This document shows positions 2,236 to 39,000 of a stretch of DNA of 44,609 bases, in pieces. Source of the stretch: Reclinomonas americana ATCC 50394 (Eukaryota). Within the stretch, counting starts at the first letter, position 1, and the number at the start of each line of letters is the position of its first letter. A program made the translations under genes and the position numbers. The notes under the pieces are model-generated. The model had not been told where the DNA came from. It searched no databases and saw only the letters and a list, made by a program, of their open reading frames with translations. The stretch covers positions 1 to 44,609 of the forward strand of contig PS015301.1 of the NCBI GenBank assembly GCA_048213135.1, read 5' to 3'.

Positions 2236-3660
2236 ATGGAGCTTCGTGTCGGAAACAAGTACCGACTCGGCCGCAAGATCGGCTCGGGATCCTTTGGTGA
2301 AATCTGTTGCGTCTCTCTCTCTCTCTCTCTCTTTACTGCTTTCTTTGGTCGCCTGCCTCTCACGCTCTGTGTGTGCGCGCGTGCAGACCAAGGCACCAAC
2401 ATTCAGAGCGGCGAGCCCGTGGCTATCAAGCTGGAGCCCGTCAAGACACGGCACCCACAGCTGCTGTACGAGTCGCGTCTGTACAAGATTTTGGGCAGCG
2501 GTGGCGGAGGTGAGACGACTCTCTTTCTCTCTCTTTTCCGTGGCTTGATATTCTTCCCGTCGCTCACCCACTTGTTCTTCCTCTAGCTGTCGGCATTCCG
2601 ACGGTCAAGTGGTACGGTGTGGAGGGCGACTACAATGTGATGGTGCTGGATCTGCTGGGCCCGTCGCTGGAGGACCTCTTCACCTTCTGCTCGCGCAAGT
2701 TCTCGCTGAAGACGGTGCTGATGCTGGCCGACCAGATGATTTCGCGTGTGGAGTACGTGCACGCCAAGAACTTTATTCACCGCGATATCAAGCCGGACAA
2801 TTTCCTGATGGGCACCGGCAAGAAGGGCCACCACGTGTACACGATTGATTTTGGACTGGCCAAGAAGTACCGTGACCCCAAGACACACCAGCACATCCCC
2901 TACAAGGAGAACAAGGCCCTGACTGGCACCGCCCGCTACGCCAGCATCAACACACACTTGGGCATTGGTGCGTTATTTTTTTACGTTTTTTTGATTGCTC
3001 TCCCTTGTCGGTCGTCGTCTCATTTGTGGTGTGTCGCACAGAGCAAAGCCGTCGTGACGACTTGGAGAGTCTTGGACACGTGCTGTTGTACTTTTGCCGC
3101 GGCTCGCTGCCATGGCAAGGGCTGAAGGGCGCGACCAAGAAGCAAAAGTACGAGAAGATCAGCGAGAAGAAGATCTCCACACCGGTCGAGGCCCTGTGCA
3201 AGGGCTGCCCCTCCGAGTTCGCCACCTACATGAACTACACGCGCGCACTGCGATTCGAGGACAAGCCCGACTACCAGTACGTGCGCAAGCTCTTCCGCGA
3301 TCTGTTTGTCCGCGAGGGCTACCAGATGGATTATGTTGCGTCTTTTGTTGGTCAATGCAAAAGTGCGTATGCGTGTTTGTGGTGTCTCACCCGCAGTCTT
3401 CTTTTTGTATATACGCATAACAGGTGTTTGACTGGACCATTAAGCGAATTGTTGCGTCTGTCTCGTGTGCCCTGCTCGACTTGCTTCAGGAGAAATGACT
3501 GACTTTCCTTGCCTTCTTCTTCCTTCTCCCGTCGCAGCAAGAGAGCATTCAGGCCGAGCGACCACTGCGCGTGGCCGAGGCTGGTGGCGATGGCAAGAAC
3601 GAGGGCACGAGTGGCGCAGCTGCCGCCGCCGCTGCCGACGAAGAAAGGGCCGCGGAATAA
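2236..3660 (+). CDS. CK1: Casein kinase 1 (delta/epsilon-like), 6 exons
   Basis: Exons 2236-2305, 2387-2509, 2587-2967, 3042-3334, 3424-3450 and 3538-3660. Motifs [74 protein letters not shown] and DYVFDW are present. Short acidic tail, TAA stop. Confidence 0.97.
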
Positions 3661-3907
3661 GCGGTGCTGCGTTTGGCGGTGGAAACGAAAGAAAAAAGAA
3701 AAGGTTTTGTGTCCGGGTCATCATCAGCAACCTCAATGGCACGACGACGGGGGAAGGGCAAAAAGGAAAAAGAAGAAAGTGAAGCAATGTGTGAAACGTG
3801 TACGTAAAAAACAAACAAATCAAGAACCTGTCCTTCATCGCAGCGAGCGGTCCCGGCAATCATCGAGTCGCGCAACAATCTGCGCCAGAGTGTGTGTGTG
3901 ACCAGGC

Positions 3908-6900
3908 ATGCTCTCTAGTGGCAGCCGCCACGGTGGCGGTGGCGGCGGTGGAGGACTCAGCGGCAGCGGAAAGATGCCTCTCTTCACGCCATCCAACGGT
4001 TCTCATGCCCACCACCACAGAGGACCGGGCCACGCCACCAACACCACCACCACCACAACCACCACCACGACCACAACACCAGCAGCAGCACGGCCCAAAG
4101 GCACAACATCATCCTCTTCCTCCTCCTCCTCATCATCGTCATCATCAGCAGTGTCATTCACAATCACTCATGCCATCACGGCGTGGACAGCGCGCGCCCA
4201 CTGCAACGATGCCTCGCGCACTCCTGTCTTTGTCACACACTGTGTGTGTCCACCGCGACCACCAGCGGCAGCGTCGCCTTCGCGACGGCACCGCATTCCT
4301 GCTCCGCCACCAGTCGCCAGCAGCAGCAGCAGCAGCGCGTTGAGCCCTGCGGCTCGCGCCGAGGCCCTGGTGTTTTGCCACACGAGGCGACTGATCTTTG
4401 CACACGATGTGGCACTGGAAAGGTGCGTGTGTGAAGCTCGTGTGCGATGATCCTGCTGATGTGGCTGGCTGATCATGATAAATAATACGCAGGCAACCCG
4501 ACGAATCATGCACCGTCACCGTGGTGGAGCTGACACGGTCCACCGACCTGCGTGATTTGCTGGTGCAGTTCCGCGCGCGAATGCCCGGTGGTTTACCGTC
4601 CGAGTTGGCGTTTTCCACGTTGCAGGCGTCTCTGGCGGCGTTGCATGCACTGCATTCGCTGGGTGAATCGTACTGTGCCGGTGGTCCGCGGTCGGTGCTG
4701 ACGCCACGCTGTGTGGTGCTCTCGGATCAGGCAGGTATGCCGCAGCCGCGTGTGTTATTGCGGCCGTTCTGGCTGCAGGAGAGCACGCTGCCGGCCTCGT
4801 ATACGCACGTGCCGGAGGAGGAGATTGATGACTCGTTTGTGGCCCCGGAGCTCGATCGTGGCCCGCTTTGTGACACGCAGGCGGCCGACATGTTTTCCTT
4901 TGGCTGTTTGGTGATGACGGTGCTGCGTGGTGCGGAGTGGTGGCGGCTGCAGCACGAAGCGCTGCAGTCGGGCACTGCGTCCTCGCCCGTCGATCTGGTA
5001 CCTGGCTTGTCGTCGATGGCATGCAGAACACTGCGTGCCCTGTTGAGCTCCGACGCCAGCCGGAGACCACGAAGCACCGACCTCATGTACTCGTCGCCAC
5101 TGTTTTCCTCCCTGGTGGGTTTGCATTGTCACTCTGCCTCCTCGCATGTGGTGCTGAAAACATTGTTCACAGGAGGAGTTCGAGGCGCACTTTATCGGGC
5201 CCGAGAGTGTCGACAGTGACCGCGCTCCGTCATTGGACCCGCTGTTGAGCACTGCAGAGGCGATTCTCGGTGAGCCGCCAACGCTGTTCGACCAGGCGAC
5301 GAGGGAGGAGGAGGACGATGACGAACGAGTGGCAGATCGGCAGGCGAGTGTGGACGACGACGAAGACGATGGCTACGGTGGCGACGACGATGACTTGCTG
5401 CGCGAGTCGCTCCGACTGGCCGAGTTCCTCGCCGATCCGGCACACTCACCGTCACGGCTCCGTGGATCGCCATCACTAGCGAAGCGCACGACACCATTGC
5501 CTCCACCGCCGCCGCCACCACCTCCTCCACCACCACTGGTGTCGAACGATGTGGCGAGTGAGTCGAGCAGTATGAGCCACAGTTCAACTGCTGGCGAGCA
5601 TCCGTCGCTGCTCGAAGACGGCAACGCAGTGCTTGTGTGCATCGACGAGTTTCGTGAGCCTCACTCTCTTGTGCGCTGGATGCGTTTGATTTTCCCTCAC
5701 CCCGTCACGTGGCGTGTAGTGTGGTGTTGGAGAATGGCCGTGAGGGTCCGTGCGACCTGCTGGTGGACGTACGCTGGGGTCACGTGCGAGCCACACATCG
5801 AGTGCCGACGAGGTTCCGCCATGTCGATTCGGGGAGCCGCAAGCAGCGTTCGTTGTTGAGTACGTGGCCTCCGCTGTCACTCTCCACTCGCTTCGCCGGC
5901 AGCTCGCAGTCGCTGCTGCAGTTGTGCGCCACGAAATCCCTGTACATTTCCATTACCCTGTTGGACGCAACCACGACAGCGACGATCAACCACGATGACA
6001 TACCTCTCGGCACCGCGCACATTCGCCTGTCGGCGCTCACGGCAGACCGGCCAGAGACAGTGACTGACACCACTGATCTTGTATACATGGGCGATGTTCC
6101 CGGTGAGTGTGTGACGGAGAGGAGAGAGTTTGTCACGAGCGAGTGTGTTGACTGAAAAAATATCACTGCACAGGAACCATTCTCACCAGCGTGCACTTGC
6201 TGCGACCGCTGACTGCCACTCGTGTTGCGTCCTCGCCAGCAAACACACCATTAATGTCGGAGACGACTCCAGCAGTGGGATCACCACCACCGACCGACAG
6301 CAAGTCGGGCAGCCCGATGGATCCACAGACGCAAGAGCTGCTTTCGGCCAGTCGATCGCGTCTGAACGCCATCTTTGGCTCACTCGACGACCTGCTGGGT
6401 CGGTTGCGCGGCGACAGCGAGACGGGTGAGGAGGGCAGAGTGGGCTCGCCGAAATCGCCGCCAGTGACGCGCGGTGTGGACACCAGTGAGCAGCTGGCCG
6501 CACGGAGACCGCCTCCGTCTCCCCGACTGGAGGATCTGGCGATCGTGGACGCTGATGCCGTGGATGAGGCAGAGCCCAGATGGTCAGCGTCTGCGCATGT
6601 TGATGGTGTTGGTGCTGCTGCTGCTGCTGCTGCAGGGGATCGATCACGGCTATGGAGGTCACAGCCATCTCCGTTGTTCTCTGCCGACGCTCCCACCTCA
6701 TTATCGGTCTGCGTTTGAGTGATTGTGTATTCATTGTGGTGTCTGGCGCTGATGATGATGCTGTTGCTGCGCCACCAGTCGTCGTTGCACGCGCCGCGTG
6801 ATCCGCACTCGGCAGCCCGGGAACGAGAACGCCACTTGCTCCGGCAGTGGCATCTCGCCGAGCAGCAACAGCAACAGCAACAGCATGAACACATGCTGTA

Positions 6901-8819: not shown

Positions 8820-9073
8820 GAGCGCGCGCGTGTGTGTGTGTGTGTGTGAGAAGAGAAGAGGCAGAGTATTGGAACGCATGGCGTGTGTGCATGCGTGCTG
8901 CGCACCTCGCCTCCAGCAGCCACCTGCTGTGCTATTGTGCTGGACGAGGAGAGCGCCGACCACCATGCGCGGGTGGAGCGCACTACTCGCACCACCATCC
9001 GTCTACAGATGAATCGCCGGGACGACGGAGGACACTGCGTGCACACAACTCGCAACATGATTCATTGCCAGTT

Positions 9074-10980: not shown

Positions 10981-11053
10981 TGCCTCCATTGAGATTTGAA
11001 CTCAAGACCTCAACATTACTAGTGTTGCGCTCTACCAACTGAGCTATAGAGGC
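10981..11053 (-). tRNA. tRNA-Thr(AGT)
   Basis: GCCTCTATAGCTCAGTTGGTAGAGCG-CAACA-CT-AGT-AA-TGTTG-AGGTC-TTGAG-TTCAAAT-CTCAA-TGGAGGC-A folds into a 73-nt cloverleaf, followed by an oligo-T Pol III terminator. Confidence 0.97.
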
Positions 11054-11238: not shown

Positions 11239-14200
11239 CTAACTATGAACCACGGCAGTCGCCGGTTCGTCGCCGAGACACACTGGGCACACGCTGTTGG
11301 CGAGACACCGCCGGTGCATGAGACTGCCGCAGCGGCAGGTGGTGACCTCGCGCACTTGGAAGGAGAACAGACGGTCGTTGACGTCGCGGCAAATGCGACA
11401 TACCTGGCCCCTGCTTCCACAATACTGCGCTCCGCAACACAGTGAGTGCACGCGAAACAGCAACAACAACAACAACAACAACACACCCGACAGTTCTTCA
11501 GCACGTGCTTTGTCATGCGCGAGTGCAGGTCTTCCAATTGCGGCAGCAGCGTCCCCGAGCTGCGACGACTGCTTGAGTACCTTTTTTTCTCGGTGTTCAT
11601 CCCTTCGCTCTCCCACACGCAACTGGAGATCCTGCAGATCCTGCAACGAGAAAATCTCCGTGCCAGAGATGAGGTGTGGACGGCTCGAGATGTGGGAGAA
11701 GAAGCTGCAATGATCCGCGCCAGTCAGTTCCATCAGAAACACATAACCTCAAGCGATCGTGTCTCGTCACCTCTCCGCATGAGAGCATCCCTGAATGGTC
11801 TCGGCAAGCGGACTGATTTCCGCACGCAGCATCTGCTCAACCATCCACCGTCAGGCATACACACGAGCGAGAAAAGCAGCAGAAAGAGCATGTCAACGCA
11901 CTCTGCAGCGTTGCAGCTCTGGCACCGTGTCAAAGAGTTCTGGGTTGACGGCGGACAAACACAGCACCGGATCGGAGAACATGGAGCTCAGGAATTCGTA
12001 CGCCATGTCGCACACGCATCCACTGCGCAGCGGAATGCACAGTGATGAGAAAGAGAGAGAGAATTCTCTTATCTCTCTCTTCTTTCCAGAAACACAAAAT
12101 CTTAAATCCCACGCATCTGCAGGCATGCGCTCCCTCTTTCCATCCTCTCCCTTCCCCTCCCTCCCTCCCTCCCGCATCGTGACTCACGGTCGGAAATCCC
12201 ACTTCATCACCACGCGTCCCGGAATAATGTGCCTCTTGTCCGTGTGGCACGACCGACAGCACAACCGTGCCGTGTACTCGCACAGCCGAGGTTTGCCAAA
12301 CATGGCGTTGGCTGCAGCACCACAAGCATGTCAAACTCACCTCTCCACGCACACACACGGGATCAGCGACACAGACTCACGCTTCTTGATGTGCTTGCCA
12401 CACACAGCGCACATGTGGCGCTGCGCTTGGTACACGAACCGGCGGTCGACCACCGTCTTTGACGGATCCAGGTAGTGGATGCGCAACTGCAGCGTCGATT
12501 AGTACGCAATGACAGAAAAAATAGTGGAGACTCGCTGCGCGCCCGGAACTCTCTTGGACTCCGGTGTTCGCGGGTCCCAGTCCACATCCGAACCGAGGGC
12601 CTCCCACACGTCGGCTGGGGGGAGCAACAAGCAAGAATCAATACATACATGGGCGCCGTCGCGCACGCGTGCGTACCACACTCACTCACCAACAATGCCA
12701 GCCCGTTCGAACCCGCCGTCAAACTGGCTAGCAGCGTCGTACTGACTCTCTGCATCCAACGCCGCTCCCCAGTCGCCCGACGCGTTGTGTGACGACAGTG
12801 CATCATCACCAGCATCAGCCTCGTCGCCCTCGTTCCAGCCGCTAAACGGGTCCACCTCGGCCGCTTCATCCTCTGCCACCAGCCAGTCAGCGAAATCCAC
12901 TCTTGACACGCCAGTACATCTCTCTGTTCACAAACCGAGCATGTCCCACGAAGAACTGAGGCCAACTGCGGACGCCGCAGCGGCCGCTCCCGCTGTCTGC
13001 GCCACGCCTCGTTGGCCGCCACTGCGGTGAGCGGCACCCGCGACTCGCCCACTAAAGTCGTCGTAGTCTTCCGCGTCATCCACAGTCTCCGCACCTTCTG
13101 CCTCGTCATACCCCGCATCGTCGTCACCTTCGTCGTCGCCCTCCTCTCCAGTTGCACGGCGCAGCTGAGCATGCACGCAGTTGAAAAGTCAGTACCGCAG
13201 GCCGCGGAGACAATGAGTGTGCATTGTCGCGCACCGTGGAGTCGGGAACGGTAACCTGGCTCTGACCAGCAGGGTACCAGTCGGAGAACGGAGAAATGTA
13301 CACAGGAGCCACCGAGTCTTCCGGCTCCCGCAGCAACAGCTCCTTCAGTGCGTCGGGATGCTTGAATCCGGTAATGTGAAGCGCCGAGTACGCCCCCGCC
13401 TGTGCCGGTAGGTACACACAGGTCACAATGTGCATCCAAACACAAATGGCAGCACGGCAACAAACCTCTGAGCTCTCCGCCGCAGTGTCTTCACTGCCGA
13501 CACTGTCCGACTCAGTGATAGACGGAGGAGCGGCTGTTGACATTACCGAGTCGGTCGGCATTTCTGCGTGATGCTCGCCCTTCTTTTCGGGTCGAGCGGC
13601 TGCAGCGGCGGCGGCCAGCGCCATCGGCGATCGATAATCCACTGACGATGCTACTGCGCCTGACGAGTGGAAGCAGATGAGTGACGTGAGCACACGCACA
13701 CACACACACACACACTCCCACACCCAGTACACAAGCAGACAAACCAGCAGATCTCTCTGTCGTCGGCAGCAAAGGTGGCTCACTGTAGGCGGTGCCCAGA
13801 TCGCTGTCGTCCTCAAACATAGCGTCATGCACCTCCTCGACCTCTTCCACCTCCTCCTCACCCTCCTCCGCGTCACCACTCTCGGTGGCACTTGCGGTAG
13901 CGTGGTGATCCACACCATTTGCGGCAGCGTGCTGTACAGGTTTGCTACCGACCAGATCGAAGCTGGTCTTGAGGGAAGAGGACAGGCGGGCTGGTGGCTC
14001 CTCAGTCGGAACCAACACCGATGTGTGCACTCGCATGCTTTGCGCTGTTCACATGTGTGTGCATGTCAGGATCATGCGGGTCTGAAAGGGATGATCTCAG
14101 CACGCAATGTGCGCAACGTCGCTGCGAATCACTTGCGGGGGGTATGCGGAAGCTCTGGCCGGCCTTCCATGACGAGCGTGTCTGCATACCGCGACGTGTC

Positions 14201-15647
14201 AGTCACAGGCACCTTCTGCCAAGTAGTGCAGCAAACGTACGCACCGATTCCAACTCCTGTCGCTCCTGCTGCAACGCATACCGCATCTGCACCAGCTCTC
14301 GTTCTTCCACGTGCAGTTTCTGTTGCAGAGCCTCTAGTCTCTGCCGCGTCCCCCCACCCACACACACTCATGGTTGTCAGAGTGGAGATGGCATGAGCGA
14401 TTCACGCAGACAGACACAAACACACACCGCCCGCTCCATGGACGACTGTCTCTCGAATTCCTGCTTCTCTCGGGCAAGAGCACGACTCACTGTCGTCACG
14501 CGAGTGCTGCAGTAGATCGTGAGCCAGCACAGCTCACTGGTGGCAACGCGACAGTGCACAAACGCAACTGCGACAGCATCTCGTCGAATTCGGGACAGTA
14601 CTTGGCGAGGGCGGTGGGCGGCACTGACCGCCTCAGTGAAGCGCACCGCTGACGGTAGTTGTCGAGACGTGCACTTAGCGTCTGCGTGTTCACAGCCATT
14701 GAGCAAGCTGGGAGAACAACATAATCAGAGTGCCAAAGCACCGACCTCAATTGCCGCCAACCCAAAATGGTCCGCCAGCGCAGCCGCCGACTCGAGGTGC
14801 ATAGAGTCGGCGCTGATTGCATGGTCGAGAGACGCAGCAAGCTGTGCATGCACGAAACGATCGACTACAAGGCGAAGCGCTGAGGCGGCCTCCTGCGCGA
14901 CGAGAGTGGAAGAGTTGGGTGAAATGAGCAAAGATCAGAATCGACTGCAACCAAACGCACCAACACAACCGCCGTCGGCACGGCAGGCGCAACGACGACA
15001 GGTGGTGATGGTGGTGCTGCTGCTGATGATGATGAAAAAGATACTGATGATACCACTGGTGCTGGTGCTGCTGGTGGTGGTGGTGCTGCTGCTACTGTCG
15101 TAGGAGGGGGTGCGCGCACTTCGACCTGCACCACCGGTGTCGGCACCGGCGTCGGTCGAGTCTCCTCGTGCGGCACGTGAGGTGCGGGCTCGTGCACAGT
15201 AGCCTTCACAGGCACTGGTGCTGGCGTTGAAGACGGAGCGCTGTCCTTCACTGGCAGTGGTGGCGGCGGTGCCGACGGCTGCACCGTCGTGGTCATGCTG
15301 GCCGAAGGCAGCTCAGCTTTCCGAGAGGACGACTTGTGTGGTGGTGATCCTGCACTGGACTCTGAGGCACCTATACCTTGACGAGTGAACTCAAGAGTGT
15401 TTTCACATGCGCATGTGTGTGTGTGTGTTGAACAACGCACCACCATCCAGTTGCACCACTCGCCGCTTGGCCTTCTTCTTGCCAGTGGATTTGCGCGTCG
15501 CAACCACTGCTTCCCCATTCACCGAGGCCTCCAGCACGCCAGTGCCGTCTGGCGACTGCAGTGGCGAGGGCGCGACAGGCGGCGAAGGAGTGGGGGACTC
15601 GGGCGGCGCAGCGGATGCCGCGGTGGCGAGGGCGGATGCCGGCGTTG
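11239..15647 (-). CDS. Rubicon/PLEKHM1/DEF8-family protein with a C-terminal Rubicon-homology (DUF4206) zinc domain; 5' part interrupted by a gap
   Basis: C-terminal exons encode QRHMCAVCGKHI, PRLCEYTARLCCRSCH.DKRHIIPGRVVMKWDF and CGSRGQVCRIC...LFSF...CRCGSLMHRRC...CPVC, the RH-domain pattern. Upstream are Pro/Ser-rich, coiled-coil and acidic regions. TAG stop at 11239-11241. Confidence 0.85.
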
Positions 15648-16249
15648 NNNNNNNNNNNNNNNNNNNNNNNNNNNNNNNNNNNNNNNNNNNNNNNNNNNNN
15701 NNNNNNNNNNNNNNNNNNNNNNNNNNNNNNNNNNNNNNNNNNNNNNNNNNNNNNNNNNNNNNNNNNNNNNNNNNNNNNNNNNNNNNNNNNNNNNNNNNNN
15801 NNNNNNNNNNNNNNNNNNNNNNNNNNNNNNNNNNNNNNNNNNNNNNNNNNNNNNNNNNNNNNNNNNNNNNNNNNNNNNNNNNNNNNNNNNNNNNNNNNNN
15901 NNNNNNNNNNNNNNNNNNNNNNNNNNNNNNNNNNNNNNNNNNNNNNNNNNNNNNNNNNNNNNNNNNNNNNNNNNNNNNNNNNNNNNNNNNNNNNNNNNNN
16001 NNNNNNNNNNNNNNNNNNNNNNNNNNNNNNNNNNNNNNNNNNNNNNNNNNNNNNNNNNNNNNNNNNNNNNNNNNNNNNNNNNNNNNNNNNNNNNNNNNNN
16101 NNNNNNNNNNNNNNNNNNNNNNNNNNNNNNNNNNNNNNNNNNNNNNNNNNNNNNNNNNNNNNNNNNNNNNNNNNNNNNNNNNNNNNNNNNNNNNNNNNNN
16201 NNNNNNNNNNNNNNNNNNNNNNNNNNNNNNNNNNNNNNNNNNNNNNNNA

Positions 16250-17055: not shown

Positions 17056-17305
17056 TCTCCTACAATGAATGCACTTGAATGCACACGCGCTTTCTCTCGC
17101 GAGTGCAAAGCAAACCCGGGGTGAGCGGGAATTGCATGAGTCACGCATTTGTCCACGAGTGTTGCTCAGCACCACACTTTCTTCCCTTGCATGATCACTC
17201 AGGCTCGCCAACAAATAAACTTAGTTAGTGCGCGAGGACCTGGAAAAGAAGGAGAAGGGAATGAGAACAAAAAAAAAAGTTGAAGAAAAAACATCAAAAA
17301 ATAAG

Positions 17306-17377
17306 CTCTCCCGCCGGGAATTGAACCCGGATCACCTGCGTGACAGGCAGATATCCTAACCATTAGACTACAGGAGA
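17306..17377 (-). tRNA. tRNA-Asp(GTC)
   Basis: TCTCCTGTAGTCTAATGGTTAGGATA-TCTGC-CT-GTC-AC-GCAGG-TGAT-CCGGG-TTCAATT-CCCGG-CGGGAGA-G folds into a 72-nt cloverleaf, with a downstream T-run terminator. Confidence 0.97.
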
Positions 17378-17921: not shown

Positions 17922-19386
17922 GCCACGGCAAGCCCGACCTCCGTGTTCATCAAGGAACTCACCTTCCGCGGCGAGAAGGCGCACTTTGAGAAGATCAACC
18001 GTGATGTTCGCGATATGCTGACGCAGCTGCGCCAGCGCGACAAGGAGATGCAGGAAATGGTGAGCGCATGTGTGGGGTTTCTCCCTGTCTTCTGTCGCAC
18101 AAGTTGGAGGCATGACCGAATATGTTGCGGGTGCGTTTGTGCGTGTTAGGCGGATGTGGTGGAGCAACCGGAGTTGGTTGTTGATCGACGTTGCGTTGGC
18201 GGTCATGCATGACTGTCACTTCCTGTTCCACTCTCTCACTCCGATTTCTCTGGTCGTCGCTGCTGCGCAGGCAATCCCATCGTGCTGCGCAATGTCAATG
18301 CGACACCGATGCCGACCAGCAAGAAGCGCCAGGGCAAGACCAAGAATGTGGGTTACCTGGAGGCGCACACAAACGGCTACCGCTACATGGTCAACAATGA
18401 GTCTGTCGGTGCGTACAGCCTATGTTGGGTTTTTTTGGTGGCTGCTGAACTCACCTGCCCTGCAGACATCATGTACCAGAACATCAAGCACGGCTTCCTG
18501 TCGCCGTCGGACTCGCACACCAAGACGCTGCAGCGCACCTCCAAAGTACTTTTGCACTTCAACTTGAAGGACCCCATCATGGTCGGCAAGACCAAGGCGT
18601 TGGACATTCAGGTGTACGCCGATGTGATGGTCGAGGACTCGCTAGGTACGCGAACTCTGGCTGCGTTTGGGTGATCACGTTGGGTGTTGCTCACAATGCC
18701 GTGCACGCAGCCAATGAGCGACGCATGAGTGATGCCACTGCCATGGAGGAGGAAGAGCGTGAGATCAAGAATCGGCGGCAGGTGCTCAAGTTGTTCCAGA
18801 CTTTTGCCGAGAAATCCGAGCAGCGCATCAAGGCTGTGGTGAGTGCCCGCCGATGCGTACGCCTCTTTATCACACACACACACACACACACACGTGTATG
18901 ACGTGCTTTGTGTTGTCGGCTCACACAGAATCCCGGCTTTGCCTTCGAATCACCGTTCCACGATCTCGAATTCGTCGGCGCCGTCAAGGGCTCCATGTCG
19001 CACCTTGCTCCCACCACCAACTGTTTGGTGTCGCTGCAGGAGAGTCCCTTCTTTGTGCTCTCGATCGATGATGTCGAGCTGGCGTCGCTCGAGCGTGTTG
19101 TGGTACGTTTGCGCAAGCGCCACACAAGAATACGCGTGTGCCTTCACTCACGTGCTTGCTGCAGACCGGGCAAAAAACATTTGATATCGTGTACGTGTTG
19201 AAGGATTACACCAAGGATCCCGTGCGAATCGATTCAGTCCCCATGTCGCGTATCGATGACATCAAGAACATTCTCTTGTGCGTGCGTTTTCCGCGTCTCC
19301 ATCCATCATCATCCCTTCTGTTGCTGACAGCACGTACGTGTGTGTGCCTGTGTGCTCTTGCGCTCTGCAGGGGTCTTGGTATGGTG
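17922..19386 (+). CDS. SPT16: FACT complex subunit SPT16, dimerisation and middle domains, partial and multi-exon
   Basis: Encodes VFIKELTFR, GYLEAHTNGYRY, DIMYQNIKHGF, LLHFNLKDPIMVGKTKALDIQVY, FESPFHDLEFVG, PTTNCLVSLQESPFFVLSIDDVELASLERV and KTFDIVYVLKDY across GT-AG introns. Confidence 0.93.
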
Positions 19387-22500: not shown

Positions 22501-25500
22501 TTGTGTAAGCACAAGGGCAAGAGGCATGCATGGGCGTGCAAACGCACACACTACGTACCCACGCAGTTTTTCCACGGCCGGATTCTTGTACAGAGAGGCA
22601 ACGAACGGCAGCACACACTTGAAAATGTATGTCCTGTATGTTTCTCGTTCCTTTCGTCGTTGCTTGATCTGCAAGCGTGACAATGAGCATGTAACGAAGC
22701 TGCGCACACTTTCGTCATTGTCAAACGTACCATCTCGTCAGTGCCCATGGTGGACCGACGCGAGACCAGCGGAGCCATGCTGACCTGGCGTCTGGTGACC
22801 TTGCCGCCAACTCCGCCGTCGTTGGTCGCCGACCAGCAGTCCAACGATGACGATGTAGACGTGCGGCGAACCACTGGTGGTGGACTCATGACTGCTCCAG
22901 GCATGGTGGCCGTGTAAATCGAGCTCGAGTTCTGTCTGGCCAGCGGCAGTCCACGGCGCGATGTCTCGCTCCGCGGTAGTCCCGACGGTGGTGGCATAGG
23001 CCCTCGTGCTCCTGTCAAAGCACCGTTGTCGCGTTCCACTGGCGAGAAGACGTTGATCACGTCGCTTGCCACTCGCGCTACGGGCGGCAATGCCGGAACG
23101 ACCACGCCAGCTGGCGGTCCGTGGTTCAAATGTGACGACTGTGCCTGACTGTTGCCGTTCCACACCTGGCGAATACCCTGCAACTCCATGACAGTAGTCC
23201 TCTTTGCCAGATGCGGACGACCGCCAAAGCCCTGCACACGAGTGGCAGCGGCGGCGCTAGCCACGTTCTCGTCGTCTGTATCGCCATCTTCTCCGTCGTC
23301 ACTGCCGGTCGCTCCTGGAACATTGCCATGATCGCCAACCGCCACCAAACTCGAATCCGAATCTGCGCAAGACAAAAAGGGGACATGCGCATGGCGGTGA
23401 GACAATGGCGAAACAAGCAGCAAACACATTGTGTCTCAATAGGCCCTAATGTCGTACCGTCGTCGTCTCCACCACCAGCGGCCTCCTCCAGGGCATTCAA
23501 CACTGCCAGCCGAGTAGACCCAACGGAGGACATGGCATCGTCGGCCCCGGCACCACCGCTCTTGAGTGCTGGCGAGGCTTGTCGCGGGAACTCGCGATCA
23601 GCGGCGCCAAACTGCAGCGAGTGCCGGTGGTGCTGCAGTCGCAGAATAGTGGTGCGTCGCCGCTCCAGCTCTTCGTCTACCACAGTCGATTGCACGGGTG
23701 CCACCAGCGTCAGTGGCTCCGCACTCGGCACTGCCGTCTCGTCATCATTGTCGTGAGTGACGCCATCGTCACCGGCATCAGCTTCTTCCGTCAAGCGTCG
23801 TGCCTCTGCCTCCTGCAGCCGTTGCTGCTCCTCCTCCTGTCGGTGTTGTGCCTCGGCCAGGTAACGCTCCAGCTCCACGAGACGTGCCATCTCGCCCACG
23901 ATGCTGCGCAGCAGCAGTCGGATACGCGGCACTTCGTGAATCAGCGACGTCGACTGCTCCGTGTTCATGTACACCTCCAGCAGGAAGTCGAGAAGCGGGC
24001 CCTTGACTTCCAGCACAATGTGCGGGTCGTCCAGGAGATGACGAAAGACCTCTTGTGGCGGGAACCATGCCTGGCACTTGAGCTCCGTCTACAGGGGTGA
24101 TCAGCGAGTGAGTTGGCACGCTGCACAGGCGCAGAGAGGGAGGGAGAAGGAGGAAAGAGTGAAGAACGCAACATAGTAGTTCTTGCCCTTGGAGCAGAGA
24201 GTGAGGACATTGAGAAGTGCAATGTGGTATGCCAGTAGGCCGTCGTCCGGATGAGTCTCGTGGTCTCTGTCGCGCATCAGTTCCGACCTGCCAGTTGCGC
24301 AGGAGATTAGTGTCTTGAAGGAGAACAGTTCGCACACACCTGCAGGTGACAAGAACACACCGCAATGCAAAGCCATCGTCGCCGCGGAAGAGAACAAGGG
24401 CTCGACTTTCGCGCTCCGCGAGGGCGCGGAGGACCAAGTTTTGGTTGCGCTGGATCGGTTGGCTGCCGACACTGAGAATGCACTGTGTGGTACACGCAGA
24501 TGTGAGCACGCCCNNNNNNNNNNNNNNNNNNNNNNNNNNNNNNNNNNNNNNNNNNNNNNNNNNNNNNAGTGTGCGACAGTGTGAGTTCTCTGCACACACA
24601 CCTTCAAAAAAGTTCAGGTAGCGTGGATATCTGCCGTACTCGACAATCAGGCGGATAAAGTGACGAATGTGATCCTGCGTTTTGATTCAGGTGCAAGTGA
24701 GTCTTACTGCTGCGCAAATGGTGTACGAAATCCACTTTCTATACCTCACTCAATGACAAGCACCTGCCGAGAGAAGACACCATGAATGTGTCAGTCAAGC
24801 GATCTGGCTTGGAGACGTGCACTGCGAACAATGTACGCAACATGATTCGGTTCTCGAGCACGACCAGCTCGACGAGTTTCGCCACCGTCAGCTTGGTGCC
24901 CATCTGGCAGAGGAACAACTCAAAGTGTCGCAGAGCCTCGCGCTGATTCTCGGCATTGTCTTGCACCCACAAAATCAGNNNNNNNNNNNNNNNNNNNNTA
25001 GCTCGTAGATGCTGAGCATGAGGTTTTGCTCCTCCTCTGCCGACTCGTCGTCCGTCAGTGGCATCTGCAGGAACGAAACCAAAAGGTCGAGAGTGCCAAG
25101 GTCGCGCAGCAGATTCTGCTTCTGGCGTCGGTCGCCGCCCTGTTGCAGCTCTGCAAAGACGGAGGGTGATCAGTGGTGGGCACGCGTGCAGACAGCAGAG
25201 CGGGCACGTACCGAGAATGAGATCGCGAACCAAACAGTTGGCCTCCTGCTCCTCGCCGAGTGTCAACACGCTGCCACCGGCATAACACGAGAGTTCGTCG
25301 ACGATGCGTTTGAGCGAGCGATACAGCACAATGCTCCGCTCGGTGAGGATGTGAATGGCCTTGGCGCGCGTCAACAGCTCCTCCATCTGCCCGTGTGAAC
25401 GGAACAGCAAGTCGAAGGCAGCCGTGCGAAGTGGCGTGTATCGGTACTGACACAGGTCGAGGAACATGGCGTCGAGCTCGGCGTGGGGCACGAAAAAGTC

Positions 25501-28500
25501 GTGTTGCTGAAACGAGGGGATGAGAGATCGGAACAAAAATACAGACACCCACATGTGCATGTGCAGCAGACACACGCACCTTGAGCAGAAACTGCAACTG
25601 CGCTTCCAAGTCGATTGTCCGACCGGCTTTGAATAGAGCCAAGAAGTGGGTGATGCGCGAGTTGAGCCGCACATCGTACAGCGATGACAGAATACGGACG
25701 GCCTCCAGTTTGCAGTTCTACAGCACAAGGTGATGCTGTGAGATGAAGGACAGTGGAAGGTGTGCGGCATCCACCACGCGCGCACATACCATGATGAGCA
25801 AGTTGTTCTCCGTTTCTGAGAAGCGCGCGCTAAAGTTGCTCTCGCGCGAGTAATCATCGAAACGGCCGTCCATGACACCAACAATGCTGCGTGCAACTGC
25901 GCCCGCCACTTGCAGGTTGCGCAGCAGGCCTTGACGCACCATGACTCCCAGAATCTTCAGCAGCTGTTGTCGCATTGGATGTGTGTGTGTGTGAGACGCT
26001 ATCGCGAGTGGCGCCACCGCTGTTGTCTGCCACGCAACTGTTAATGAAAACGCATTCTCTTCGACTTGATGCAGCCGCTGCGGTGAGCTCTGCAGAATGT
26101 GCTGCAGCGAAAAGTCGATCAAGCGCGCAAGACTGCGAACAGCCTCATGGCGACCGGCTCCAGACAGCGACTGCAGTGATACACCTTGGTCCTCTTGTAG
26201 CCGCAGGCCCTGCACTGCTGCGTGAGACAAGCAGTAGGGACTCAACTCACTAAAACGTGTACGCGCACTTACCTCATCGACCGCCTCTGTCATGTTGTCA
26301 ATCCTCGTGGAGAGCGAAACAACACTGCTGGGAGCGGTCAATCGAGGACGCGCTGGTGCCACTAGCTGGGTATTGCGAGCACGGCTGGCTCGCATATCGC
26401 CCTCCTGTATTTGAATGTCGCCAGTGGTGGTATGGTCGACCTCGTGCCATATCTGCGAAGTGGCCTGTGAGCCAAGCGAACGGGCGCGATCACCCGAGAT
26501 GAGACGCGAGCATACCCTGACTGGCTCCACCAGCGGCATGTCTTCCAGGGCGCCCAGATGGACAATGTGCATCAGTGTTGCAAAGCGTGTGCGAAGGCGG
26601 AGATGCACTTGGGGGTTCGACAGCACGTCAAACACGAGCGAGAATGGCAGAATCTCCGAAATGTGTGACACACACGGTCGCGGCCGATTCTGTGCGACAC
26701 AACAAGAAGGCACGCAAGTGGTCAGCCTTTCGTCTGTTCACAAAACTCTTGCCGCCAGCAGCCATCATTCGTACCACACAGAGTAAGCCGTACAGGCGGA
26801 TCTGTTCCAAAAAGTATTCCACCAACTCGCTCTCGCCATCTGCGCGAAAGAGGGAGGGAGTGAGGCAACGTGCATGCAGGAGGAGGCAGAAGAAATGTTT
26901 TAGTGTTCGCACAATGCAAAAAGTCGGCCAATGGTAGCCGGCGTGCCTGCCCTTCATGATCGTACTCCACGTAGAGACCCTTGTCGGGTAGCCGACGAAC
27001 GTGCACCTGGACTCGCGGCATGGCCTTGACAAAGTGCTCGAGGATGAACAACTGCGACGGGCAAGGTGCGTTGTTGAGTGGAATACCGTCGCCAGCTGAC
27101 AATGTGACAGCAATAACCTGATTCTTTGTCACTCCACTGACGTCCTCGCATACACACAGAGTGCACAACAGGCTCATGTATCTGTTTCGGAAGCGACAAT
27201 GAGGATGTGTGCCGTCGTGCAGAGCACGAACACTCACACCACATACCTGGCCTTTCGGCCGCACAGCAGTGGGAGGTCAACAAAGAACTGCAGTTCTTGA
27301 TTGGTCTGTGACAGTGAAAAGTGAAAAGTGAGACGCGAGAGGTGAGAGGGAACTTTTCGGAAGCAAGCACGTTGTTACCATTTCTTCGAGAAGCGTGAGG
27401 TTGTCCTTGTAGATCTCCATCAGCTGTAGAATGAACGCTGTCAGCAACGTACGTGGAATGTTGCACTGGTGATGCCGCTCACCGTCAACGCAATCTCCTC
27501 CTCGTAGCCGAGCTGGTCTTGCATGAACTGTAATGACATTCATGATCAGTGGTTGTGACGGACCTAGTTGTTGCTGACAAGCGCACACACCTTGGCCATT
27601 GGACGGAGGTGTTCCCGATTCTTCCGATAGTCCTTGGCAAACTGCTTCATGAGGCGGTACACCAGTCGCACAACATCGTGTACGTGTCGACTGCGAGAGT
27701 CGTCCATCGCGTACGATTCGTTGCGGAAGATGGCCACAAGCACGCGATGACAGAGTAGGATGACCTGCCATGTTCACAAACAAAATCCGCGTTGACAAAG
27801 ATGATAGGGGGGGACACAAGCCTGTCGCTACGGCCAGCACACACCTTGCGTTCACGCAGTAGCTTTTGGTGCGCGCGAATCGGTAGACCCTCGCGTGTGA
27901 ACGGGTTGGTGTCGGTGGACTCGGTGCAGAAGAGAATGAGCAGAGTGAGGACTTGACGGACCGGCTGCGTCTGCTCGCGAGACGGCAGACCAGGTTGTTG
28001 CATCTGCACACGCACGCGCAAAGGGTGAATAGGGGGAGCGAAACATGAGCGCCCCTCCGATGAGTGACACGAACCAGGACAATGAAATCACTGAGCGGCC
28101 GCGACAGCATCACCACCAGGCTGAGGTCGGCCACCACGTCAGGCGGAACTCCGACCAGAGCAAACGCGTCCTCGTCCATCGGCAGCGCCGACAGCGACAA
28201 CTGGACTTGTCCGCCACCGTACTTGATGAAACTACCGACGCCCTGATGAACCAGCGGCGGTGGTTGGTTGGCCTGCTGAGGTCGGCTGCGTGGAGTCCAC
28301 GTCGATGCAAACTTCATCTTGCGCTTTCGTTCGTCCAGGGTGAGGAGGAAACCGCGAGTCTCACGGTGCCGGATGCGGACGAAATCATCAATGTTGATGA
28401 TACCATCGCCTTGGTACACCGGCGCAAAATCTGGACGCAAAACAGCACTGTGTGAGCTCGCTCGGTAGCTGGTGACGGTCACCGACCGCATCTCCGCTTA

Positions 28501-31500: not shown

Positions 31501-32871
31501 AACATCTCAAACGTGTCGCTGCTCGCAAAGTTGACAGTGGACGAAACCGCAGATGGTCGATGAGCCAGCGGGCGCTGTGGGTAATCGTGGTACTGCTGCT
31601 GCAACGAGGAGGTGGCGGTGGACTGCTGCTGTTGATGCAAGAGTTGATGTTGATGTTGCTGTTGAGATGTGCGCATGGAGGAGAGGGATGACGCCGACTT
31701 GACCGTGTGCATCTGCGGTAGCATGTGCGCGGCAATGTCGTCGTCAAAACCACCCTCCATGGTTGCATCGGCGCTGACCGAGTGTTGCAACTCGTCGTCT
31801 CGCCGCATGTAGCCCAGCATCGATGCCGCTGCGGCGGATTCAGCGATCTCCATCGACAGCAACGGCGGTGAGGGCGAATGCCCAGGCACGTAGTACGGCT
31901 TGAGGCCGGCGGCGGTGACTGCTGGCATGGCGGCCATGGCGACCGGGTCCATTGCCGCAGACGCAGCGGCGGCCCCAGCAGCTGCGGCGGCAGACAACGA
32001 GGCAGTCGACATGGTTATCCCCGGTTGCTCAAAGAACATGGCATTCAGCAAACTGTGAGTCGAATCCGAGGCCGGAAACGGCGTGGCAGGTTCAACTTGA
32101 GTCTGTTTAGCGTGCACCAAAGAGTGAATGTCTGGAAACGATGCTCATGCCGAGACAGGGACACGAGACGCAACCGCTGTGTCGTCGTCGCTGTCGTCTT
32201 GTGCAGGCATGGGTGGCTCTGCACGGTTCCAGTTCGCGCGCAGGAAGAGCACATACGAGTTCGCATGTGCGACCTCCTCGTCAGCGGCCAGCGACGACAT
32301 TAGTGGCACAGTCGCCGAGAAGTCCTCCGCCTCCTCGGTCGTATCCGGAGGGAGCGGTATCCTGCTGGGCGACAAGACCTCCTGCGGCGCAGCAGCAGCA
32401 GTGGTGTCTAATTGATCGTCCACGGCACTTGGTGCTGGTTCTGCTAATGGCGCGGCGCCGTCGGTCCATGCAAGGGCCGGTGTCGGCCGCACAATCGGTG
32501 GCAACATGATTGTGTGTCCCGATCGCGGCACATTGAGGCCCAGCGGCGACCCGCTCAGCGAGAACACTCCAGGCGCCACAGCCGAAGGCGGCGGCGGCGG
32601 CGGTGGCGACGACCGCGATGGCGACCGTGCCTCGAGCGCACCTCTCAATTCGAACGTATTTGCCGAATGACCACCAGCCGACGTTACATCATCGTCATCT
32701 TCGTCGTTCTGATTCATCACATGGCTCGGTGCATATGGAACCCCGCGCACGGGTGAGAGGAAAGGCTCATGCTCCTCCTGGCGACGGAGGGAGAGAGAAA
32801 AGCATGCATACTCAGTCACATTGCAATATCTGGGGTCATGAGGAACCACTGACCTCTTCTTCCATCGACAT
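19541..32871 (-). CDS. ITPR: Inositol 1,4,5-trisphosphate receptor-like channel, more than 30 exons; C-terminal transmembrane/pore part not in the assembly
   Basis: IP3R motifs occur in order: LSYGACISL...GFL, PPADFRDCVF, YGASVQLRHVKS (suppressor/MIR); LRHMASGLYL; RAHQKLLRE and DYRKN (binding core); VRLNSRI; QNLLRDLG; GKNYYTELKCQ; VKGPLLDFLLEVYMNTE; LRLVQLCCEGHN and TLTDMIQGPCVENQ (RIH-associated); VEVVR...LERVFFPIPKIC. The putative start MSMEEE at 32871 is less certain. Confidence 0.92.
21048..21565 (+). CDS. ITPR: Three internal ITPR exons on a contig that appears inverted
   Basis: VVDMIATGSDELVKEGLEFGIALLEGGNVL|VQDSMLSYL... continues in phase 0 from the minus-strand exon ending QTRLSRLGAARL. 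This compares with IP3R GASNLVIDLI...AIALLEGGN..IQ. The contig is bounded by N runs on both sides. Confidence 0.88.
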
Positions 32872-33113
32872 CGTTCAAAGACCTCAATGGTGTACGCGCG
32901 CACGGACGGACGCGTGAGTGTCTGTGGGTGACGGTGCGATTGGTCCTTCTTTTCTCGTCGCAAGGTCAAAAATCAAACGTTCGAGTGCGAGCATTGTCAG
33001 ATGGAAAACGCGGGAATCGCTGTTCAAGTTCGATAAAGGTGGGGGGCCGCAGTTGTCTTCTCTCTCCACTCGCTCCCTTGTGTGGGCTCACCAGCCAGCG
33101 TGTGTGCGTGCAG

Positions 33114-35609: not shown

Positions 35610-36044
35610 TCCCCCCTCGACCTGCCGAAATTCGTTAAGCCTTGACACGGGTGAAAAAATCAAGCAGGAGTGTTTCGCCCCTCTGCGTGTACACATGGAT
35701 GTGGGTGTGAGTCAGGAAATGAAGACAGGGATGGGCTTGCAAACCAACGTCGTCATGTCCTCCGACCTATTGCGACGTTCGCGCATCGGCAGAGACATCA
35801 GCAGCGTCGCTTAGTTGTTACCTCGTCACCGGCGGGTACGTGTTATTCACCGTGCCTCTCCCCTCCACCTTGCGCACTCTCCTTCTCTGTCTGCCGCGGC
35901 CGCCATGTCTCCTGCTATTTGTGTGCGTGTGTGTTGTCACTGACCAGTCCGCCCTGCTCTGCCTCTGCAGTCAGGCGACAGAGGCTCTTGCAGAGGCGCT
36001 CCAGCAGAGCGGAAGCGGAGTGTGCACAGGGTTGGGGGGCGGCC

Positions 36045-39000
36045 ATGGCCACGCGATTGAGCGACAAGATCAACGAGTTCCTCGCACAGCAGCAGCCACC
36101 GCAGCAGCAGCAGCCTCCGCCACAGCAGGTGCACGCGCAAGCTGAGCACAAGTCCAGTCGACGGCGTGACAATGGTGAGAGAGTGGATGCACAGGCAGTG
36201 ACGAACTGACAATGCGTGTCGGCGACTGACACGGTGTGCGTGCAGTCACTCGGCGACCCAAGTCCTCCAGTGGCAGCAGCGGGAGTCGCAGCAGCAGCAC
36301 GAGCAGTAGTAGCAGCAGCAGCAGCAGTAGTGGCAGCAGCAGCAGTGGAGGCAGCGCCAGGAGCCGAGGGAGCAGCAACAGTGGCAAGGTTGTCGATAAT
36401 GCTACTGCTGCCGCTGTTGTTGCTGGTGTGCCTGTGGAAGCTGCGCAGTTTGGCGGTGGCAGCGCCAGCAGCGAGAGTGTCGTGCACAGCAGCGGCACGG
36501 GAAGCGTAGACGACTACGATGACGGCGATGATGATGATGATGGTGACGATGACTATGAGGATGCATTGGAGGGATGCGCCGGTAAGAGAGTGGAGTCACC
36601 GGGTGCACCTGCAGCGGAGGCGCAGTCGAGAAGACGGCCCTCTGCGTCGTCTGTTGGCGAATCTCCTGCCGTGACGGCGGCGGCAGCGGCGGCAGCGGCG
36701 GCTTCGGCGGCTTCACCGCTGCTGCAGCCGGTGATGAATTACTGGAGCATTCCGCCGTCGGCCGCCGCCAGCTTGGTGGGCGGCCGAGCGCCGGGCTCCA
36801 CGTCTGTCACCTCGACGTCCACCACAACGACGACCACGACCACCACCACCACCACCAGTGCCACCGCGGCGGCGTCTGCAGCGGCGGGCAGTGGTGCTGC
36901 TGGGTCTTCGGCGGCGCTGGAGGAAGACGGACTGATCCTCCTCACAAAGAGTGCCTACCGAACAGACGTTGCGTGGTGGCGCGCGTGGAGATCTTTTTGC
37001 TGCCTGCCTTGTCCTCCACTGACTTTGTGTGTGTNNNNNNNNNNNNNNNNNNNNCGGCCGCCACAGCCGCGGCCGCGGCAGCCGAGAGCGACGACGCACG
37101 GACCGGTACTAACCGGCAGTTGCGTAGTTCCAGATGACCTCCCTCCACCAACAGCGCCTGTTCGAGATTCAAATTCTCCATCACCAGGTGGCCGTGTACG
37201 ATGATTGGCGCACTGCCTGACTCGAGAAACACATACGAGTAAGCAAGCAGCGCATGGACGGGAGAGAATAATGCGCGCCACGCACCTTTGATGTCCACCT
37301 GCGATGTGACGTCTCCGCGCAAGCGCACGGTGCGACCTCGTGGAATGATCACCGGCGTCTACACACACACNNNNNNNNNNNNNNNNNNNNNNNNNNNNNN
37401 NNNNNNNNNNNNNNNNNNNNNNNNNNNNNNNNNNNNNNNNNNNNNNNNNNNNNNNNNNNNNNNNNNNNNNNNNNNNNNNNNNNNNNNNNNNNNNNNNNNN
37501 NNNNNNNNNNNNNNNNNNNNNNNNNNNNNNNNNNNNNNNNNNNNNNNNNNNNNNNNNNNNNNNNNNNNNNNNNNNNNNNNNNNNNNNNNNNNNNNNNNNN
37601 NNNNNNNNNNNNNNNNNNNNNNNNNNCTGCAGCCACGGCCGGCCTGTCGTCATCGGCTGGGCGAAGACCAGCAGGGTCACCATCGACCCTGGATGCGCGT
37701 CACATGACCCCACACTCTGCACCACCATTACACACCGAGCTCGGCGACGGCGTCATTGCTCTCGGTGTGAACGGGCGTCTCGGTCGACCAGGCGTCGCTG
37801 ACCTCGGCGCGGGTTCTGTTGGCGATCTCATTGGCACCGGCACCGACGTGGATCACCGCCGTCGTGCCAAAGATGGACGCGCCAACGGATCCGCTGCTGG
37901 TGGCGATGGGCCCGGCGGCACGGCTGCTGCCGGGCTTCTGTCACGACACGATGCTGCCGAGCAGGACGACGAGTCCGCAGCCCATGTCAACGGCGCTGGT
38001 ACAGGTGGTCGAGGTGGCGGCGGTGGTGGCGGTCGTCGAGCAGTGCCTGCAGAGAACGGCGGCGGTGGTTCTCGTGCGCATCGTCGCCGTGCTGAGGTTG
38101 CCGACGATGATGAGGACGACGAGGCCGACGATGAGGATGATGAGGAGGACGACATTGATGAGGATGATGATGGCGACGACGATGACGATGACGACGTTGA
38201 CGACGAGGACCTGGACTACTACGATGACGACGATGATGACGACGAAGACGACTTGGGCGACGAGGATGGCGACAGTGACTTGGATGCGATTGAAGCGTCT
38301 CGGTTCAAGGTCGACGAACAGAGCGCCGGAGCCGGTCGACGAGTCGTGCGCAGCATCTGGGTCACTCGCGGTGGCTACCTCAGCGCACGGAAGACAACGT
38401 TTGACGTGCGCATCGAGGCACGCCAGGGCTCGACTGTGTGTCTGCAAACAACAGTGCACAACACCGGCAACAGTTGCGTGGCCGTTCTCTCTCTCTAGCT
38501 TGTCTGTCGAGAGATTCAAGACGACTAATCGTCGTTTCCCTGCAGTGCGCTGCGCCGTGATCACCGACGGATCGAAGCTCTTTGCGTATCACTGCGTGTT
38601 CCGAAAGCACGGCGGTGGTGGCATTCCGCCGTCGCCCTTTGGTATCGCCATCGACGATCCGGTTAGCACCAGTGACGACGATGATGAGGAGGAGTTCACA
38701 CTGGAGGACTTTGATCGGGGGCTCTCCTTGGCGGCGTCGTTGGTCGAGGCGGAGCTGTCGGACGGTGCGTGGGGGAATGTTTATGGCGAGTCGGTGGACC
38801 AGGATCAGCGTGATGCGGTGGCTTTGCATGGTGCGTCGCTGTGCTTGACCGTCCTCGACCATACGTGTGTTGGTACTGATGTGCATCTGTTTTTTTTGCA
38901 TGTGGCAGCATCGCCGTCACCGCCGTCGTCGAGCGCGTCGTTGCGGTCGGTGCCTCTAATTCTCTCCGGACAAGACATGAGATTCGGTTCCGGCATTGGC

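Follow-up and report, generated by a model that had tools for sequence, protein, structure and literature searches.

How can a 5' splice site be recognised when the conserved part of its consensus lies one base further into the intron than usual? The question is raised by a stretch of DNA from Reclinomonas americana ATCC 50394 (contig PS015301.1 of assembly GCA_048213135.1; 44,609 nucleotides (nt), hereafter the window), in which introns of several genes appear to begin with the heptamer GTTGCGT. Eleven such donors had been listed, correctly as to position, in a preliminary description of the window. We find that the recurrent GTTGCGT donor is real, that it goes beyond chance and that it accounts for about one intron in ten in the window. 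On balance, we think it somewhat probable that the heptamer represents a second 5' splice-site class of ordinary GT-AG introns, about one in ten here, which would be read by U1, a small nuclear RNA (snRNA), one base out of register.

The closest view of these sites is given by a casein kinase 1 (CK1) gene, in which three of the five introns begin with the heptamer (plus strand, (+), and minus strand, (-), are marked throughout; a slash marks the cut):

2236-3660 (+), CK1 gene, identified by Pfam
2236-2305, 2387-2509, 2587-2967, 3042-3334, 3424-3450 and 3538-3660 (+), the six CK1 exons
2306..2386 (+), CK1 intron 1, 81 nt, tct/GTTGCGT, acceptor GTGCAG; the junction GEIY/QGTN matches P0014
3335..3423 (+), CK1 intron 4, 89 nt, tat/GTTGCGT; MDY/VFDW is gap-free against P0014
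3451..3537 (+), CK1 intron 5, 87 nt, att/GTTGCGT, branch-like CTGAC; junction TIKRI/QESIQ

The six-exon model with its three GTTGCGT donors encodes 338 residues and aligns to P0014, the protein of a relative (336 residues, 92% identity). All five junctions are free of gaps, the single 2-residue gap of the alignment being located in the divergent C-terminal tail; only the model using GTTGCGT donors gave such a gap-free alignment. The motifs GEIY/QGTN and DY/VFDW, to which the preliminary description had pointed, were rebuilt in this way, whilst the junction TIKRI/QESIQ agrees with P0014 and also with euglenid CK1s. Judged by homology, 2306, 3335 and 3451 are thereby proven as exact exon ends, and because the junctions align to P0014 without gaps the cut at the CK1 sites falls before the first G of the heptamer. 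No sliding of the intron borders is possible at 2306 and 3451; in case of 3335, slides of +1 or +2 give the same messenger RNA, with GT-AG ends found at offset 0 only. Reading through 3451 leads to a stop after 17 codons. Two other cutting positions were rejected: a GC-AG cut 3 nt downstream (GTT/GCGT) would add one residue where P0014 shows no gap at the three CK1 junctions, and cutting 5 nt downstream, at the second GT of the heptamer, breaks the CK1 reading frame. The nearest named relatives of the protein are euglenid CK1s, with whole-protein identities of 85% (Rhabdomonas), 84% (Eutreptiella) and 83% (Euglena (E. gracilis)). On this basis the host was treated as probably euglenozoan and as distinct from E. 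gracilis. On the 5' side of the gene, at 2160-2235 (+), a pyrimidine-rich stretch followed by CAGCAG lies ~40-50 nt upstream of the start codon; this arrangement is like that of a 3' splice acceptor and may mark the point where a spliced leader is added or where an intron of the 5' untranslated region ends.

Introns across the whole window were predicted with our own dynamic-programming gene modeller, which uses a three-periodic Markov coding score and was run in three passes; a first codon-usage gene model had been dropped, as it merged genes and strands. Pass 1 was donor-blind, with an equal donor score for every GT, and predicted 110 introns, amongst which GTTGCGT was the commonest donor heptamer (n=6; 2306, 3335, 18190, 24172, 32174 and 38473). 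Addition of a single-register donor matrix (position weight matrix), which penalises GTTGCGT, left four such donors in pass 2 despite the penalty and introduced an error, with the proven 2306 donor replaced by GTGAAAT at 2297. When GTTGCGT was given an average donor score in pass 3, the exact proven CK1 structure was recovered and eight GTTGCGT donors were used; hand reading then added the previously claimed sites 14568 and 24841 together with a new one, 11623. The donor-blind pass overstates odd donors, because its call of GTTGGGT at 18424 is wrong: passes 2 and 3 point to GTGCGT at 18409, which is presumably also favoured by the human SPT16 sequence. The merged table comprises 114 introns (median length 74 nt); it is partly hand-edited, was predicted from genomic sequence with our own model, and is certain to contain errors. 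It holds 11 GTTGCGT donors (36968 left out), 2 GTT[G/T]CG variants, 52 donors of the form GTRNGY, 37 other GTR, 8 GTTNGY and 4 others. The "one in ten" of the preliminary description is thus borne out by the merged model (11/114, 9.6%), the donor-blind rate being 6/110.

The two strands of the window together contain 20 copies of GTTGCGT, compared to 10.3 +/- 3.1 in shuffled sequence, where 1 of 100 shuffles reaches 20; 16 of the copies are sense to the local gene, one is antisense and three have an unclear strand. TGCGT comes directly after 5 of the 731 GT in intron interiors and 2 of the 1660 GT in exons, as against 6 of 110 donors (binomial p = 5e-5). Seen from the other side, the donor-blind pass used 6 of 18 sense-strand GTTGCGT copies, compared to 110 of all 3021 sense GT (p = 3e-5). 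The heptamer is found at donors at ~8 to 15 times its rate in intron interiors. The earlier list can be extended by one further GTTGCGT site, the twelfth (11623, minus strand), and by five candidates that deviate from the heptamer in a single letter. For 11 of the sites (ten of those claimed, without 36968, plus 11623) there is no normal-looking in-phase GT within 45 nt. Several further copies were rejected as donors: 39189, where an acceptor in phase is absent and the beta-helix repeat reads on; 37119 and 43596, each located in the 3' portion of an intron; and 31122 and 6224, which are antisense or of unclear strand. The copies at 10177, 7445 and 5971 were not counted as donors.

The nine sites outside CK1 are predicted as follows:

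18190..18270 (+), SPT16 intron, 81 nt, gac/GTTGCGT, preceded by a 40-nt exon
24089..24172 (-), IP3-receptor-like intron, 84 nt, tat/GTTGCGT, in-frame TAG at the acceptor
11569..11623 (-), Rubicon-homology gene intron absent from the earlier list, 55 nt, cca/GTTGCGT
38473..38545 (+), beta-helix gene intron, 73 nt, aca/GTTGCGT, branch-like CTAAT
32103..32174 (-), intron on the IP3-receptor strand, in the low-complexity 5' region, 72 nt, gcg/GTTGCGT
14507..14568 (-), Rubicon-homology gene intron, 62 nt, gca/GTTGCGT, branch-like CTCAC; hand-read
24764..24841 (-), putative IP3-receptor-like intron, 78 nt, cat/GTTGCGT, branch-like CTGAC; hand-read
25964..26038 (-), putative IP3-receptor-like intron, 75 nt, aca/GTTGCGT, branch-like CTCAC
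36968..37034 (+), putative donor, gac/GTTGCGT, CTGAC motif; the intron enters a 20-N gap at 37035-37054

Frame or homology is restored at three of the twelve sites by P0014, on one side at 24172 and 11623, and by frame at the others. The donor at 18190 is supported by one-sided homology plus frame: it is picked by the donor-blind pass, its flanking exons match Pfam SPT16 60-103 and PH_SPT16 3-34, and the sole in-phase downstream alternative is GTCATGC. Searches of the PDB gave no relevant match for SPT16, and its N-lobe frame returned 0 hits against longer proteins. One-sided homology plus frame also support 24172, which all three passes picked: the preceding exon (...LCSKGKNYY) aligns to its final residue with ITPR2 1365-1392 (...CTEGKNVY; E 0.024), all 14 hits of that search being IP3 receptors, while PDB searches with the following exon gave no hit. 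Of the junction GKNYY/TELKC put forward in the preliminary description, GKNYY is therefore matched by ITPR2, while TELKC, for which the PDB gave no match, is a putative IP3-receptor motif. The IP3-receptor open reading frame returned 0 hits against longer proteins, as did exon 23459-24088 against the whole protein library. In case of 11623, the donor splits the very codon at which a RH_dom match (103-126, E 0.022) ends; the exon that follows carries the domain on in phase (...SGTLLPQLEDLHSRMTKHVLKNC). The Rubicon-homology domain (11400-12200, -) is itself spread over at least five short exons separated by introns of 55-74 nt with donors GTGAGTC, GTGCGTT, GTGACGA, GTTGCGT and GTGTTGT, most of these exons having been missed by the automatic models.

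The donors at 38473, 32174 and 14568 are supported by frame and intron features only. All three passes pick 38473, where the frame of the upstream exon runs into a stop at 38496-38498 if unspliced, and 32174, where splicing removes the single stop (32145-32147) between two long open reading frames in the same frame. The 14568 intron would join ...EFDEMLS to an 80-nt coiled-coil exon that is followed by a GTGTGTG intron; the automatic models preferred other paths, and we consider this donor plausible, not proven. Evidence for the putative donors 24841, 26038 and 36968 is weak. Use of the 24841 donor calls for a microexon of 19 nt (24763-24745), itself followed by a GTATAG donor; PDB searches gave no relevant match here. 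At 26038 the sequence is in frame spliced or unspliced, as had been pointed out before; the blind pass took GTCGAAG 27 nt upstream and GTTGCGT was used only with the bonus in pass 3. At 36968 the basis is intron-like sequence only, as the gap hides the frame.

In their other properties the GTTGCGT introns are ordinary GT-AG spliceosomal introns, as is shown by length, branch motif, pyrimidine tract and 3' end. They measure 55-89 nt (median ~75-80 nt), and 11/11 sites with a defined acceptor have the form GT...YAG. In the blind model, a YT[CGA]AY motif lies 8-55 nt from the 3' end in 6/6 GTTGCGT introns vs 31/40 GTRNGY introns, with mean pyrimidine fractions of 0.67 and 0.60 respectively. Introns of the window in general have a 3' end that is mostly CAG, a C/T-rich tract and a CTCAC/CTGAC-like motif within ~55 nt of the 3' end.

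What sets the class apart is the position of its consensus relative to the cut. All 12 GTTGCGT sites have C at +5, with GT at +6/+7, whereas +5 is G in 72 of 101 other modelled donors; the cores that follow GT at normal donors in the blind pass are GTGT (8), GCGT (6), ACGT (5), ATGT (3) and GCGC, GAGT and GTGC (4 each). The exon also differs: its last base is G at 1 of 12 GTTGCGT sites (T 5, A 4, C 2, G 1) as against 27 of 40 normal donors of the blind model (Fisher p = 5e-4), and inclusion of the five variant candidates, none of which has a -1 G, changes this to 1/17 (p = 2e-5). Exon position -2 is C or A at 11 of 12 sites, as is the case for -3 at normal donors. The extra base is T only, given that GT[A/C/G]GCGT yields 0 donors in 7 sense copies, and the core is GCG only, GTT followed by GTGT, GAGT, ATGT or GTGC yielding 0 donors in 19 sense copies. 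The -1 G is retained where a donor of the normal register has T at +3 (GTTTGT, GTTGGT), the four clearest of the blind pass being preceded by gag, cag, acg and gag; a blind call of tgc/GTTTGTG at 14563 was read by hand as part of the 14568 intron and set aside. Donors of the types GTTTGT and GTTGGT, all with -1 G, were noted at 13465, 12935 and 16995 (-) and at 42977, 43528, 44182 and 44504 (+). The formula "GTGCGT plus an extra T" used in the preliminary description thus holds insofar as the heptamer reads as the local consensus moved by one base, but it does not account for the missing exonic -1 G or for the restriction to the GCG core. Nearest-neighbour folds against a generic U1 5' end, which may not be that of the host, returned an extended helix at 3/12 sites, this being the shifted register (pairs -2/G11, -1/U10, +1/C9, +3/A7, +6/C4 and +7/A3), and a bulged helix at 0/12.

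We favour the shifted register over a bulged T because the -1 G is missing and because the GCG core alone is used. In such a register U1 would bind one base off, with G-U-U-G-C-G-U aligned to the normal junction G/GUGCGU: the intron G+1 would occupy the position opposite U1 C9 that normally belongs to the exonic -1 G, U+2 would be the sole mismatch of the alignment, and the GU at +6/+7 would replace the conserved GU at +5/+6. The catalytic core formed by U6, U5 and Prp8 might then cut at the only GU in reach, one base upstream of the position that U1 indicates, and pairing of the U6 ACAGA box with the GU at +6/+7 would have to tolerate one extra nucleotide. Several observations weigh against this picture. 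Close homology proves 3 of the 12 sites only and three are weak; counts are small, with three cases in one gene, and the underlying intron table is the error-containing genomic one described above. Whatever the register, the duplexes modelled with the generic U1 end come out weak (+0.5 to -4.0 kcal/mol vs -4.9 to -13.5 kcal/mol for four normal donors), and an A at exon position -1, the preference of the shifted register, is seen in 4/12 sites only, T being present in 5/12. Moreover, use of the GCG core alone is unlike normal donors, which have several cores, and does not follow from a pure register shift.

Could the heptamers simply be normal donors with a T at +3, their GCGT drawn from introns rich in GT and GC? 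TGCGT is fairly common in introns (53/9027 positions) and three sense copies (37119, 39189 and 43596) lie in 3' intron parts as non-donors, yet the excess at donors over intron interiors (p = 5e-5 or lower), the C at +5 that breaks the best-kept normal position and the distinct exon context leave chance or composition very improbable. A miscalled extra T in true GTGCGT donors might be suspected, as the scaffold is in rough draft, contains 17 N gaps and seems to be out of order in places. Such an artefact is nonetheless barely credible to us, since twelve independent errors of the same type, at donors only, are implausible, GTGCGT is correctly read at many donors, and those donors carry the -1 G that the GTTGCGT sites lack. 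We also attach next to no credence to introns of another kind (euglenid intermediate or nonconventional, U12-type or mobile introner), which come to mind since the nearest CK1 relatives are euglenids, bearers of such introns in the excerpts of PMC3935182 and PMC11170887. Pairing between the intron ends is no stronger than in other introns (-9.4 vs -9.2 kcal/mol, p = 0.78), and the borders are GT-AG, with GC at +4,+5 and without CA/TG at +4,+5 and -7,-6, which speaks against the euglenid types; the 5' end is not RTATCCTT, and CTSAC, the branch-like motif, is shared with the other introns, which speaks against the U12 type; and introner copies are rejected given that no similarity extends beyond the first 7-9 bases, local scores past base 9 having a mean of 9.4 (maximum 16) in the class vs 8.3 and 7.8 in controls.

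The remaining alternatives stay within the major spliceosome. With a bulged U, pairing of U1, and later of U6, would be in the normal register, G+1 lying opposite U1 C8 and one U of +2/+3 being flipped out, so that the site is in effect GTGCGT plus T. This would preserve the same intron pairs as the shifted register, would fit an extra base that is always T through the U-U ambiguity at +2/+3, and has a documented human counterpart in the bulge +3 (or +2) register (excerpt of PMC4856993). It leaves U1 C9 free, however, so that a -1 G is expected where 1/12 is seen vs 27/40, and the nearest-neighbour folds did not return the bulged helix at any of the 12 sites. Of the bulged pairing proposed in the preliminary description, the second donor class in ~10% of introns accordingly stands, whilst the exon context favours a shifted register over a bulged T, and we regard the bulge as unlikely. 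Rather doubtful, too, is the existence of two parallel systems, in which a normal U1 would be accompanied by a dedicated U1 (possibly also U6) paralogue complementary to GUUGCGU. Weak duplexes, a tight heptamer and the GCG restriction do leave room for a non-generic U1 or a dedicated paralogue: a generic U1 end pairs poorly with GTTGCGT, the class, with 7 bases fixed in 12 sites, varies far less than GTRNGY with its several cores, and U1 and consensus may co-vary, given that Euglena U1 pairs with all five bases of GTGTG in the excerpt of PMC11170887. Against this, the window is without an snRNA gene (Rfam, E up to 1), branch motif, pyrimidine tract, 3' end and length are the same as in other introns, and the uniformity stems in part from an exact-heptamer search, one-letter variants seeming to exist.

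Donors of the shifted register have a human precedent in GUUAAGU, which is reportedly an example described by Roca and Krainer in 2009. That shifted or bulged U1 pairing is established in human donors, as the preliminary description held, agrees with the excerpt of PMC4856993: shifted and bulge +3 (or +2) U1 registers are there proven for human sites, all validated noncanonical registers together make up ~1.5-2.1% of human sites, and U6 need not follow the register of U1. The present sites resemble the human shifted (+1) register of that excerpt in that the normal register is poor, +5 is not G, a slide of one base restores the consensus and the upstream GU is cut; they also resemble its test oligonucleotide ACA/GUCAAGU, whose CA before the cut is found in 4/12 sites here. 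They differ from the human shifted sites as excerpted in comprising one tight heptamer with the local GCGU core instead of AAGU and in amounting to ~10% of introns. With the bulge +3 (or +2) sites of PMC4856993 they share the extra U after GU and a downstream consensus one position late, but they miss the -1 G expected of a bulged helix from C9.

Amongst protists, the excerpt of PMC11170887 gives GTGTG as the Euglena gracilis 5' consensus, pairing with its U1. The window introns are like the conventional introns described there in being short and GT-AG, with a consensus resembling GTGTG (G at +3/+5), a pyrimidine tract rich in C and CAG at the 3' end; they differ in that their commonest cores are GTGT, GCGT and ACGT, and the second, shifted donor class is unlike anything described in that excerpt. 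For diplonemids, themselves euglenozoans, the excerpt of PMC12621601 reports a 5' consensus of (G)/GTATG, with noncanonical ends in hemistasiids; introns are short in some species, as here, and the 5' pattern differs. A search of full-text literature, with coverage excluding most subscription journals, returned no description of GTTGCGT as a splice site, and nothing comparable on shifted or bulge registers in protists.

Human donors depend only rarely on U1 pairing that is shifted or bulged, so that a genome in which ~10% of introns begin with one such heptamer would offer a natural system for its study, opening the questions of how U1 binding and the cut site separate and of how U6 copes with an extra base. 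The practical consequence lies in annotation: with a single-register donor matrix, the gene finder misplaced one proven CK1 intron and lost others, so that systematic frame errors are to be expected in annotations of this genome and its relatives unless the second class is modelled. A dedicated U1 paralogue serving ~10% of all introns, if real, would amount to a division of labour like that with U11/U12, but specific to this lineage.

The five candidate introns with one-letter variants of the heptamer are:

22293..22363 (-), 71 nt, tct/GTTTCGT; found in all three passes
22199..22268 (-), 70 nt, gta/GTTGCGC; hand-read, unproven
5649..5719 (+), second kinase gene, 71 nt, cga/GTTTCGT; donor-blind pass
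14045..14117 (-), 73 nt, gac/GTTGCGC; in-phase alternative to a poor GTGATTC at 14132
9003..9056 (-), malonyl-CoA decarboxylase gene, 54 nt, cat/GTTGCGA

With the donors at 22363 and 22268, one intron of 165 nt becomes two of ~70 nt around an in-frame microexon of 24 nt. In case of 5649, passes 2 and 3 took GTGCATC 12 nt upstream, whilst 9056 is an in-phase alternative to an implausible GTCCCCA donor at 9101. From these candidates we infer that the class may loosely be written as GTT[G/T]CG[T/C]. Possible microexons of the IP3-receptor-like gene were noted at 22269-22292 (24 nt, -) and 24745-24763 (19 nt, -); the introns on either side measure ~70-78 nt, and three of these four begin with a donor of the GTT[G/T]CG type.

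The window consists of a scaffold in rough draft, with 17 N runs, and its genes contain many short introns. Gene identities were obtained with Pfam on open frames and modelled exons, which besides CK1 gave:

~979-1572 (-), kinase
plus strand, second kinase gene
minus strand, malonyl-CoA decarboxylase gene
~11.2-15.6 kb (-), Rubicon-homology-domain gene (the "RH gene" of the preliminary description)
16249-17628 (-) and 17922-19277 (+), SPT16 pieces
~19.6-32.9 kb (-), long IP3-receptor-like gene
plus strand, PSMD3/Rpn3
plus strand, right-handed beta-helix gene
plus strand, Sfi1-like gene

The IP3-receptor-like identity of the long minus-strand gene was also returned by a PDB search; the gene stops near 19610 without a channel domain. 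The minus strand encodes the SPT16 N-lobe, the middle, PH and Rtt106-like parts of SPT16 being encoded by the plus strand of the contig that follows, and N gaps are located around these pieces at 15648-16248, 17774-17856 and 19387-19540. Around these gaps, pieces of the scaffold have probably been placed in the wrong order or orientation. Long low-complexity coding tracts are present at 38100-38252 (+), 36268-36384 (+) and 31344-32972 (-), including an Asp/Glu run and Ser/Gln/Ala-rich sequence, and because of these several exon ends are hard to verify. An Rfam scan of the window (gathering threshold and E up to 1) returned two transfer RNAs (tRNAs) only and no snRNA. These are tRNA-Thr(AGT) at 10981-11053 (-) and tRNA-Asp(GTC) at 17305-17377 (-); they lie between or inside protein-coding genes, and both sit in stretches modelled as long introns of 447-479 nt.

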